This document shows, in pieces, positions 43,801-45,972 of a stretch of 59,896 bases of DNA. The notes beneath the pieces are model-generated. The model saw only the letters and a list, made by a program, of their open reading frames with translations. It was not told the DNA's origin and did no database searches. Within the stretch, counting starts at the first letter, position 1. Each line of letters starts with the position of its first letter. Position numbers and translations under genes: made by a program. This stretch comes from Thermoanaerobaculia bacterium (GTDB taxonomy: Bacteria > Acidobacteriota > Thermoanaerobaculia > Gp7-AA8): assembly GCA_035544835.1 (NCBI GenBank), contig DASZZV010000207.1, forward strand, positions 1 through 59,896, given 5' to 3'.

Positions 43801-44996
43801 AGAAGGAGCGTTACGCTCTGGTTTACGGCTCGACCCTGAAGGCGCATGAGGGTGACGTGGTCAAGCCCGGTCAGCCTCTGGTCGAGTGGGATCCCTTCAC
43901 CTCGGCCATTCTCACCGAGGTCGGTGGCAAGGTCACATTCAAGGACATCGTCGAAGGCGAGAACGTCCGTGAAGAGACCGACAAGGTCACCGGTCTCACG
44001 CAGATGGTCATCGTGGAGTCCGCGGCGACCGAGAAGCGTACCCCGACCATCATCATCAAATCCAAAAAGGGAGAAGAGAAGAAGTACCTCCTCCCCACCG
44101 GCGCCCATCTCGTGGTCACGAACGGGCAGGACGTTTATCCCGGCGACATTCTCGCCAAGATCCCGCGCGCTACCACCAAGACCAAGGACATCACCGGCGG
44201 TCTGCCTCGCGTAGTCGAGCTGTTCGAGGCTCGTCATCCGCGTGAGAAGGCCATCATCACCGAGGTCGACGGAATCATTCATCACGGCTCGATCGTCAAG
44301 GGCATGCGTAAAGTCATGGTCGAGACGGACGAGGGAACGCGTCACGAGTATTCGGTGCCGCGTTACACGCACGTCAACGTGCAGGAAGGCGAGCGCGTTC
44401 GCGCCGGCGATCCGCTCATCGACGGCTCCATCGATCCGCATGACGTTCTGGCGGTCCTGGGAGTCAAGGAGCTGCAGCGATACCTGGTCGACAAGATTCA
44501 GGAGGTCTACCGTTCGCAGTCCGTGGCCATCAACGACAAGCACATCGAGACGATCGTTCGTCAGATGATGCGCAGCGTGCGGGTGTCGCGAGTCGGAGAT
44601 ACCGATTTCCTCATCGACGAACAGGTCGATCGTTTCCGCTTCATGGAAGAGAACGAGAAGGTCATCATGCGCGGCGGCGAGCCGGCCGACGGCACTCCGC
44701 TTCTCCTCGGCATCACCAAGGCATCGCTCTCGACCGAGTCCTTCATCTCCGCGGCGTCATTCCAGGAGACGACCAGGGTCCTCACCGAGGCGGCGATTGC
44801 CGGACGTGTCGACTACCTTCGCGGCCTGAAGGAAAACGTCATCGTCGGCCGTCTCATCCCGGCCGGAACCGGCATGCCTGTCTACCGCAACGTCTATCTG
44901 GAGAAGGAAGAGATATTTCCTCCGACTCTCGAAGAGCCGATGCGTGAGGAAGACGAAGAGGCAATCCCGGTGGGGGATATGGACGACGAGCAGTAG
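40815..44996 (+). CDS. rpoC: DNA-directed RNA polymerase subunit beta'
   Basis: 1393 aa. Zn motif '[23 protein letters not shown]' and catalytic 'NADFDGDQM'. TTG start after AAGGGAGG. Confidence 0.97.
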
Positions 44997-45020
44997 ATCT
45001 GAAATTTCAGAAGTTTGTCG

Positions 45021-45055
45021 AAAGGGCGGAACGCAAGTTCCGCCCTTTGTTTTTC
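45021..45055 (+). terminator. rho-independent terminator after rpoC
   Basis: AAAGGGCGGAAC-gcaa-GTTCCGCCCTTT followed by GTTTTTC. Confidence 0.85.
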
Positions 45056-45110
45056 TGGCAAAAGATGCGGAAAAGTCACGTAGAGCACCGTCATGGGGTG
45101 GAGCCGACGA

Positions 45111-45542
45111 TCACCGCTGCCCGATCCATGGATTGAGCACTGGTACACCCGCCTTCTCGTACTCACTCGTGTCGCGAGAGACGATGGTGAGACCCTGATG
45201 GAGTGCGGTCGCCGCGATGATGAGGTCCGGCTCTGAGAATGTATGGCCGATCTTGCGACCGTCCTCCACGAGCAGCCGCCATTTCAGCATGATGTCCTCG
45301 GTGACAGCGAGAACGCGATGCTCGAACATCGGACGCAGCCTGTGGGTGAGCCAATCGTTCAGTTCCACGCGGCGGCTCGCGTCCTTGACGAGCTCGATCC
45401 CGAACCGAATTTCGGCAAAGGTAACCGCGCTGACATACAGAAGCTCGAGCGGCTGGGCCGATACGAAGCGGACGACTCTCGCGTCCGGCTTTGGCCGGCG
45501 CAGCTCCGAAAGCACATTCGTATCGAGGAGCCAGCCCGTCAC
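45111..45542 (-). CDS. vapC: PIN-domain toxin, VapC family
   Basis: 'LLDTNVLSELRRP.P...V..F', 'D..IAATA......LV.RDT..Y'. GTG start overlaps the antitoxin stop (GTGA). Confidence 0.85.
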   Translation of the reverse strand: MTGWLLDTNVLSELRRPKPDARVVRFVSAQPLELLYVSAVTFAEIRFGIELVKDASRRVELNDWLTHRLRPMFEHRVLAVTEDIMLKWRLLVEDGRKIGHTFSEPDLIIAATALHQGLTIVSRDTSEYEKAGVPVLNPWIGQR

Positions 45543-45835
45543 AGCTCCACGCTGCGCACCCGAGCACGCCTGCGCCGCGGCTCCACGTCGATGTCGCCAA
45601 GGGGTGATGCCCGGAGGATGTCCACCAGTGCCTGACCTGTCGGCTGGCCTCTCAGCCGGCGAAACTCTTCCGCCGAGACGACGACGACCTCTTCACGGCC
45701 GTGCACCGTCACCCGCTGAGGTCCTTCGGTCTTCACCATCCGGACAAGCTCGCTGAACCTGGCCTTTGCATCCTGAAGCGCCCATTGTCCGCTGCCTGGC
45801 GCGCGGGGAAAACGTGATCGTCGAGTACTAGTCAT
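45539..45835 (-). CDS. Phd/YefM-type antitoxin partnered with VapC
   Basis: 'W.LQDAKARFSELVR......GPQ.VT.HG.E.VVVVSAEEF..L'. ATG 45835 lies inside the palindrome CTAGTCATCCTGACTAG. Confidence 0.75.
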   Translation of the reverse strand: MTSTRRSRFPRAPGSGQWALQDAKARFSELVRMVKTEGPQRVTVHGREEVVVVSAEEFRRLRGQPTGQALVDILRASPLGDIDVEPRRRRARVRSVEL

Positions 45836-45935
45836 CCTGACTAGTATACGACACCTTGAGATGGTCGCTCGGGAACGATGCACGCCTCTGGGTGTTGCGC
45901 GTTCGGTGACACCACTTCCTCATCGACGAACAGGT
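45813..45935 (+). repeat. about 122-nt direct repeat, copy A
   Basis: Aligns with 46512..46632 at roughly 90% identity by eye with 2 single-nt gaps. Covers the antitoxin 5' end, the CTAGTCATCCTGACTAG palindrome and an rpoC-like stretch. Confidence 0.85.
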
Positions 45936-45972
45936 CATCGTTTCCGCTTCATGGAAGAGAACGAGAAGGTCA
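45850..45972 (+). pseudogene. relic copy of an internal rpoC segment (equivalent to rpoC 44543..44664)
   Basis: 45916..45972 equals rpoC 44607..44664 except for one missing G. A further about 65 nt upstream aligns degenerately. Reading frames are broken by stops and a frameshift. Confidence 0.7.

Follow-up and report, generated by a model that had tools for sequence, protein, structure and literature searches.

Partial copies of the rpoC 3' end behind rpoC in a Thermoanaerobaculia bacterium, probable scars of recombinase-less cassette insertion

The rpoC locus, its relic copies and the vapBC cassette

The window analysed here is a stretch of 59,896 nucleotides (nt) of contig DASZZV010000207.1 (assembly GCA_035544835.1, 4.55 Mb) from a bacterium of the class Thermoanaerobaculia, Acidobacteriota, referred to below as the source genome or G000. 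It contains an intact rpoC gene, encoding RNA polymerase beta', which is followed by its terminator, a putative vapBC toxin-antitoxin (TA) cassette and two truncated, non-coding copies of an internal rpoC segment, here called relics. The organization of this locus, together with that of comparable loci in related genomes, suggests that the relics are scars left by insertion of a cassette that carries no recombinase and duplicates a long piece of its target. The features that define the locus are the following, with open reading frames abbreviated as ORFs.

40815-44996, + strand: rpoC (RNA polymerase beta'), intact, 1393 codons (ORF listing; tblastn against relatives gives 80-87% amino acid identity)
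44541-44664, + strand: rpoC segment that is duplicated downstream; its 58-nt "core" is 44607-44664
45021-45058, + strand: intrinsic terminator of rpoC, a 12-bp stem (45021-45048) followed by a T run
45111-45542, - strand: vapC, PIN-domain toxin, 143 amino acids (Pfam PF01850, E = 7e-15)
45123-45850, - strand: the mobile vapBC cassette, at both limits of which nucleotide homology to the cassettes of other genomes ends (L087, L091, L115, L154)
45539-45835, - strand: vapB, Phd/YefM-type antitoxin (PF02604, E = 2e-10), likely start codon ATG at 45835-45833, inside the palindrome
45827-45845: perfect palindrome ACTAGTCA-TCC-TGACTAGT with the vapB start codon at its centre, presumably the cassette's promoter/operator
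45852-45915, + strand: relic copy A, decayed left part, 67% identical to rpoC 44541-44606, containing indels and differing at all three codon positions
45916-45972, + strand: relic copy A, near-identical part, 57/58 with rpoC 44607-44664, ending abruptly at 45972
46509-46632, + strand: copy B, a vapB 5'-end remnant with palindrome (46509-46553) followed by relic up to core base 20 (46554-46632)

The segment 44607-44664 of rpoC, less one G, equals window positions 45916-45972, exactly the 57 of 58 matches that had been read from the letters alone in the original prediction. The degenerate rpoC match that had been noticed before this core is also real, as a BLAST search of the whole genome extends the homology back to 45852 (45852-45972 versus 44541-44664, 82% identity, E = 1e-24). 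In the left 64 nt of copy A, 45 of 67 alignment columns are identical and 4 are gap columns, while the core shows 57 identities and a single gap, a contrast with a Fisher p of 3e-6. The repeat is 121-124 nt long and the copy starts lie 1309 nt apart. ORFs, Pfam matches and the terminator stem confirm the predicted content of the intervening DNA, namely the last 110 codons of rpoC, the terminator, vapC and the Phd/YefM antitoxin gene.

The third copy of the segment, copy B, is 92% identical to 45810-45935. It combines nine codons from the start of the antitoxin gene with the palindrome ACTAGTCATCCTGACTAGT, the rpoC-like sequence that has decayed and 20 nt from the beginning of the core. Copies A and B have 15 derived differences from rpoC in common and two private differences each, which indicates a common origin from a single relic in an already decayed state. 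The original prediction had proposed looking for the core next to recombinases; a search of the 4.55-Mb assembly finds neither relic nor core beyond the three copies at the rpoC locus, and scans of metagenomes with relic-specific patterns returned no match. No Rfam family was hit between 44900 and 46800.

The two cassette genes overlap by 4 nt (45539-45542) and both score above the Pfam cut-offs (PF02604 and PF01850), as predicted for a type II TA module of the VapBC kind consisting of a PIN toxin and a Phd/YefM-type antitoxin. Homology to the closest relatives of the cassette starts at 45113-45123 and stops at 45848-45850, limits that define a cassette unit of about 740 nt including the palindrome. 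VapC homologues with 70-89% identity are found in Acidobacteriota, Alpha-, Beta- and Gammaproteobacteria, Polyangia and Armatimonadota. In other phyla the cassette is flanked by unrelated direct repeats of 35-1223 nt. In an alphaproteobacterial metagenome-assembled genome (L089) it lies between 107-nt repeats of 95% identity and has the same palindrome around the vapB ATG; other flanking repeats measure 72+47 nt (L128), 96 nt (L131) and 1223 nt (L106), and one consists of 41 nt of a tRNA 3' end (L155). A further locus (L136, DASPVJ010000341.1) has the cassette, in reversed orientation, downstream of an alphaproteobacterial rpoC, with 58 nt of that rpoC and a second copy of its terminator coming after the cassette. 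This contig is binned as Xanthobacteraceae and represents either an independent rpoC hit in another phylum or a mis-binned contig.

Arrays of rpoC 3'-end copies and cargo in the family

The distribution of such copies was surveyed with the last 797 nt of rpoC as query. Among 124 genomes of the same family (f1), 96 gave a match, and 26 of these 96 possess two to six copies of the rpoC 3' end. In at least 18 of the 96, representing eight genera, the extra copies share contig and strand with rpoC and follow it at a distance of 0.5-13 kb. Each array contains one to five 5'-truncated relics of the rpoC 3' end interleaved with small cargo. A second rpoC 3' copy was found in about 5 of about 265 genomes from other families of the class. 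The original prediction considered rpoC an unusual target; in this Thermoanaerobaculia family it is an insertion hotspot.

The relics begin at varying positions, between about 1030 and about 130 nt ahead of the stop codon; most reach the end of the gene, and the terminator is often duplicated with them. In long relics, as much as 1 kb of almost intact rpoC precedes the position corresponding to the supposed core. Cargo includes Uma2 nuclease genes (G004 and G140), a restriction-modification (RM) unit with two DNA methylases plus IS481 (G089), vapBC, BrnA-like genes, DUF4160/DUF2442 pairs, nucleotidyltransferase genes, Fic with an antitoxin and lipoproteins. No recombinase is present among about 20 inspected cargo proteins from nine arrays. 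Among the matches listed for the tyrosine recombinase family PF00589 in 18 genomes, none lies on the rpoC contig or in the array, and in two complete genomes none of those listed lies within 100 kb of the arrays. No recombinase was found in the DNA between rpoC and the next conserved gene of the source genome, with serine recombinases not searched for genome-wide.

Two local rearrangements were observed within the arrays. The duplicated terminators of G004 (L050, 7580-7640 versus 9260-9320) read GGGCGGCC-GTGA-GGCCGCCC and GGGCGGCC-TCAC-GGCCGCCC, a flip of the hairpin loop. In G089 (L073, rpoC-forward 5763-6777) one relic left end, equivalent to rpoC 44370, occurs three times within 0.5 kb, each time preceded by similar non-rpoC sequence, which represents a local triplication of the cassette-relic junction.

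Comparison of working and relic copies within genomes reveals both import and homogenization. The working 3' end of G004 differs from its 1-kb relic at 9, 8 and 42 sites at codon positions 1, 2 and 3, respectively, corresponding to 41 synonymous and 10 non-synonymous codons, the latter mostly beside indels. This synonymous bias indicates that the two copies diverged as working genes in separate lineages and that one of them was imported. The copies of G084 and of G094 exhibit the same bias. In G140, 850 nt are identical between copies and the ends have diverged, and in different species orthologous relics, several with frameshifts, are within about 5% of the rpoC of their own genome. The identity in G140, combined with relics tracking their own rpoC, argues for frequent gene conversion from rpoC to relics and points to older relics being kept close to the gene in this way. 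Purifying selection on relic ORFs is not separable from gene conversion and recent import. Overall, the copy patterns fit integration anchored by homology in rpoC followed by concerted evolution and erosion.

The layout of gene end, cargo and relic is a general phenomenon and not confined to rpoC. The source genome contains at least six other pairs of gene 3' end and relic, with the repeat 0.3-4.4 kb downstream and small cargo in between. In one of them (C415:9179-10026), a gene for a 1066-amino-acid helicase/nuclease is followed by an AbrB-type TA pair and then by an 82-nt relic. The others are located at C208:5809-6864, C99:938-5622, C175:3046-4238, C396:3443-6380 and C266:12978-13316. Comparison of the genome with itself by BLAST gave more than 100,000 rows, including many local repeats of 120-145 nt, which indicates a high-copy family of short repeats.

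At the locus itself, the relics lie in a region of about 5 kb between rpoC and a gene for ornithine cyclodeaminase (OCD; 49963-50979). The source genome belongs to the sole species of its genus among the genomes compared. In a genome of another genus (G001), an OCD orthologue with 59% amino acid identity begins about 0.6 kb after rpoC and no relic is present, and the remaining genes of the region were found behind rpoC in none of 39 related loci. The close spacing of rpoC and OCD in G001 and the absence of these genes from the 39 loci define 44997-49962 as a variable islet. Its further features are listed here.

44997-49962: variable islet of about 5 kb, from rpoC to the OCD gene
46153-46503, + strand: small secreted or lipoprotein-like ORF, 116 amino acids, without a Pfam match, located between copies A and B
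46714-48010, + strand: outer-membrane beta-barrel protein gene within the islet, with weak FadL/TonB-barrel hits

The operator-like palindrome of copy B (46526-46544) is situated about 170 nt upstream of the ATG of the outer-membrane gene (46714), and a promoter-like site is present between the two at 46677-46704. The copy B palindrome could in principle be bound by VapB or VapBC.

A recurrent breakpoint and replacement site in rpoC copies

Relic ends are not evenly spread over the gene, and one site recurs in several genera.

44604-44627, + strand: recurrent breakpoint site, GAT TTC CTC ATC GAC GAA CAG GTC in the source genome and GACTTCCTC-GTCGAC-GAGCAGGTC in many relatives

The identity of the relic in the source genome jumps from 67% to 98% at this site (TTCCTC-ATCGAC-GAACAGG, 44607-44625). 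In relatives, the start of six relics falls within 44615-44622 and the end of one at 44613. This cluster of ends (44613-44622) comprises only a subset of all relic ends; further clusters are found at 44764/5 and at 44665-44670, the latter corresponding to the Met of EKVM-NRGG, which is also the right end of the core in the source genome. An imperfect 9-6-9 inverted repeat adjoins the breakpoint site and resembles the core site of a recombinase. The central hexamer varies among working genes (GTCGAC, GTGGAC, GTAGAC, GTTGAC, ATCGAC), and in the relic copies of the source genome it is intact and no ORF is present. The three clusters of ends lie at GTCGAC, CCGCGG and CCAGG; an origin by restriction cleavage was set aside because the hexamer varies among working genes and no half-sites remain at the junctions. 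As regards the dif/Xer model, that of integrative mobile elements exploiting Xer (IMEX), the breakpoint site appears unlike the AT-rich core of dif. A homing-endonuclease model based on Uma2 was discarded, as Uma2 is present in only two arrays and working genes keep the site intact.

In at least 11 long relics from three genera (g9, g5 and g35), the two codons between TTCCTC and GAGCAGG are replaced by 17-29 nt, with arms that are 88-97% identical to the working gene. Carriers of the replacement are L073 (G089), L071 (G100), L079 (G090), L084 (G087), L074 (G084), L050 (G004), L080 (G062), L072 (G101, record OY970380.1) and L077 (G095), along with the proteins P0016, P0029, P0046 and P0049. The replaced codons encode VD in the context DTDFL-VD-EQVDRF, where working genes have two residues, and all solved beta' structures possess a two-residue loop at this position. 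At least nine versions of the replacement exist, database ORFs included; most are 18 nt long, end in GG and are often in frame, giving loop variants such as TCEAIG, TCRAIG, NYPAIG, SYHAIG, SNHSNG, RNQTIG and GNRITG. A 9-mer search for a template of the 17-29-nt inserts over all fetched loci returned noise only, and no candidate enzyme for the replacement was found. The simplest account is a single old insertion in a relic lineage that drifts freely for want of a conversion template, with the arms constantly homogenized and selection barring its transfer into the working gene. This account leaves the conserved length and the terminal GG unaccounted for. A diversity-generating retroelement was rejected, given that neighbouring ORFs include no reverse transcriptase, the core is free of substitutions and the differences in the left part show no specificity for A.

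In some relics the ORF is intact, so that they look like small genes; among these are 153-amino-acid ORFs with up to 12 database members. One in G085 (L076) has a Shine-Dalgarno sequence of its own (AGGAGGAGG, AGGAGG), a 7-nt spacer and an ATG in front of an intact 117-codon ORF for the beta' C-terminus (rpoC-forward 4586-4939, equal to locus 5563-5916, minus strand). Another, in G015 (L083, rpoC-forward 3921-4256), begins ATGAAT-CGCGGC and comprises 111 codons. Public databases contain many "partial beta'" ORFs of 150-340 amino acids on long contigs.

Origin of the relics, known parallels and significance

In the reading that we favour, and to which we assign a probability of roughly two in three, a cassette without a recombinase was inserted with long target duplication, and the relic is the resulting scar, trimmed afterwards and in part re-homogenized. 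At the locus itself, the sequences establish the duplication, the limits of the cassette and the common descent of copies A and B. A recombinase-free vapBC cassette of about 740 nt would have been inserted just behind the rpoC terminator through host recombination, either by a single Campbell-type crossover of circular or looped DNA carrying the cassette and an rpoC 3' segment or by an illegitimate joint between sister chromosomes. Both routes would yield an intact rpoC, its terminator, the cassette, a 5'-truncated second rpoC 3' end and the old downstream DNA. The arrival would have duplicated at least 44541 to about 45112. For the subsequent order of events in the source genome we infer that the second copy first reached the end of rpoC and was later truncated from the right to 121 nt, with its left 64 nt decaying freely. 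The 57-nt stretch would then have been copied again from rpoC by gene conversion, or may be the recipient side of a later crossover, and recombination between relic copies could afterwards have placed the lipoprotein gene between A and B.

Several observations weigh against this reading. The empty site is deduced only from another genus (G001), and the order of events in the source genome is a reconstruction. Nucleotide and third-position identity to 21 relatives is 79-87% before, inside and after the duplicated segment, and all relatives are 79-83% identical on either side of 44607, so that this comparison has no power to resolve a break in rpoC at that position. Conversion of 57 nt beside a flank of 67% identity requires a short-patch event, and the abrupt right end at 45972 requires a separate deletion. 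Breakpoints clustered at one 6-nt site across genera are unlike random illegitimate joints, and this clustering hints at an additional site-specific or selective factor.

The original prediction interpreted the locus as a decayed integrative island with an att-like core. Its insertion footprint stands in so far as same-orientation copies bracket horizontally acquired cargo and the islet is absent from G001. The integrase-type island itself we consider improbable. It would require that a lost tyrosine or serine integrase joined an attP with a replacement rpoC 3' end to the 57-nt core, copies A and B being attR-type junctions of two tandemly accreted elements, as in the accretion of integrative and conjugative elements (ICEs) and cis-mobilizable elements (CIMEs). 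Although two or three same-orientation copies bracket cargo, no recombinase was found in or beside any of the 18 arrays (PF00589, among the matches listed), nor in the inspected cargo, and within the assembly the core occurs only as the three copies at the locus, which is largely the outcome that the prediction had itself named as contrary to an island. The left part of the relic appears element-like, being decayed and common to A and B along with the cassette palindrome, but relic left ends are highly variable, and long relics have as much as 1 kb of almost intact rpoC ahead of the supposed core. Likewise, the breakpoints of relatives cluster beside an imperfect 9-6-9 inverted repeat, yet the central hexamer is not conserved and a conservative recombinase would not exchange 6 nt for 17-29 nt. 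The cassette has unrelated flanking repeats in other genomes. Left ends that vary over about 900 nt of rpoC, and a relic that in the source genome extends 64 nt upstream of the core, leave the att-core reading unsupported there, since crossover at a fixed core would not leave rpoC sequence upstream of it. Moreover, relics are kept like the live gene by conversion, so that a short perfect core beside decayed sequence is by itself no evidence of att.

An equally improbable alternative is a local event unlinked to the cassette, in which a patch of rpoC was copied upstream of vapB by ectopic gene conversion or template switching and copy B arose from a subsequent 0.7-kb local duplication. The near-perfect stretch is just 57 nt long and has non-homologous DNA on its right, conversion between rpoC and relics is evident in relatives, and local direct repeats are numerous in the source genome. 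The neighbouring 64 nt, however, likewise derive from rpoC and are collinear with it, which argues that an older, longer rpoC copy pre-existed, and a gene end followed by a cassette and a copy of that gene end is seen again in eight genera and at other genes. It is also conceivable, if unlikely, that the rpoC copies are more than debris and reflect a site-specific process at TTCCTC-N6-GAGCAGG or selection on expressed beta' fragments with a variable six-residue loop, the relic of the source genome being a degraded member. Replacement of the same VD codons in at least 11 relics of three genera, in at least nine versions and often in frame, would be consistent with this, as all solved beta' structures have two residues there, six relics start and one ends at the site, and intact relic ORFs exist, that of G085 with its own AGGAGG and ATG and the 153-amino-acid ORFs with up to 12 database members. 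Many relics, in contrast, carry frameshifts or deletions, the copies of the source genome retain the hexamer unaltered and contain no ORF, the loop variants could stem from one old insertion drifting without a conversion template, and the search for an enzyme gave no candidate.

The favoured insertion with long target duplication has counterparts among known systems. Nobusato et al. reportedly described such insertion of RM genes in 2000. The term "insertion with long target duplication" comes from Kobayashi's group and refers to RM genes (Furuta, Abe & Kobayashi 2010; PMC2853133); members of the class are small selfish units of less than 20 kb flanked by direct repeats of more than 30 bp and of variable length, and the present locus resembles them. 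The repeat in that class is single-copy host sequence, often overlapping a gene 3' end, and transposase and integrase are absent. In the source genome the repeat measures 121-124 nt and is unique to the locus, the insert is smaller than 20 kb and there is no mobility gene; in G001, which belongs to another genus and serves only as a proxy for the empty site, OCD follows rpoC without a relic. Unlike the class as defined for RM genes, the cargo in the source genome is vapBC, and relatives carry RM (G089), Uma2 and Fic, which would make the locus an extension of the class. Further differences are arrays in which as many as five relics accumulate downstream of a single essential gene, the similarity of repeats maintained by gene conversion and the recurrent 18-nt replacement at one site.

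Elements e14 and phage 21 in icd of Escherichia coli encode an integrase that acts at a single fixed crossover site, and the core marks the start of the relic that they leave. As in that system, the gene is kept intact by a replacement 3' end located before the cargo and the old 3' end persists as a pseudogene fragment; unlike it, no integrase was found here, the relics begin at varying positions and that of the source genome reaches upstream of the "core". ICE/CIME accretion at the 3' end of fda in Streptococcus thermophilus and tandem tRNA/tmRNA islands depend on an integrase acting on short, fixed att sites. They share with the rpoC arrays tandem small elements separated by copies of a gene 3' end, some units being devoid of recombination genes; at the rpoC arrays, however, neither an integrase nor fixed att sites were found. 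Campbell-type insertion-duplication and homology-facilitated illegitimate recombination after DNA uptake are known mainly from the laboratory. These processes are likewise anchored in one conserved gene and produce an intact gene followed by a 5'-truncated duplicate, with synonymous differences if the donor is foreign, but at the rpoC loci they appear to recur in nature and to build up arrays of cassettes. Integron arrays consist of small, promoter-poor cassettes, many of them TA modules, with the newest nearest to a fixed point. Small promoter-poor cassettes, many of them TA, also accumulate one by one downstream of a fixed point behind rpoC, with the newest closest to it. An integron model was rejected as neither IntI nor attC is present, and the punctuation is the 3'-end copy of the host gene itself.

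A more far-reaching and doubtful possibility is that the rpoC 3' end functions in this family as a recombinase-independent site of cassette capture, a "poor man's integron", with the hypervariable 18-nt replacement perhaps marking a second layer. Units of rpoC 3' copy and cargo may cycle between genomes by excision and Campbell-type re-integration, using one of the best-conserved genes as anchor, with conversion keeping the copies competent for recombination. The second layer may be a site-specific enzyme acting at TTCCTC-N6-GAGCAGG or expressed stand-alone beta' C-terminal fragments with a variable loop, which might act, for instance, as decoys against RNA polymerase-targeting factors.

The relic of the source genome taken alone is an ordinary by-product, one worn example of the integrase-free stacking of small selfish cassettes behind rpoC that is common in this family of soil bacteria. 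The movement of TA and defence cassettes without mobility genes is a long-standing gap in understanding, and the series of loci bears on this question by providing natural examples that range from fresh, near-intact duplications to worn stubs of 121 nt. In this series the cassettes enter behind a conserved gene through host recombination, a copy of the gene end stays behind after each entry, and repeated entries build arrays. For annotation, many ORFs recorded as "partial beta' subunit" in metagenome databases are such relics. If the 18-nt loop replacement is functional or made by an enzyme, it would represent a new mechanism linked to RNA polymerase. The rpoC arrays found throughout the family and the recurrent loop replacement make this locus a useful entry point.

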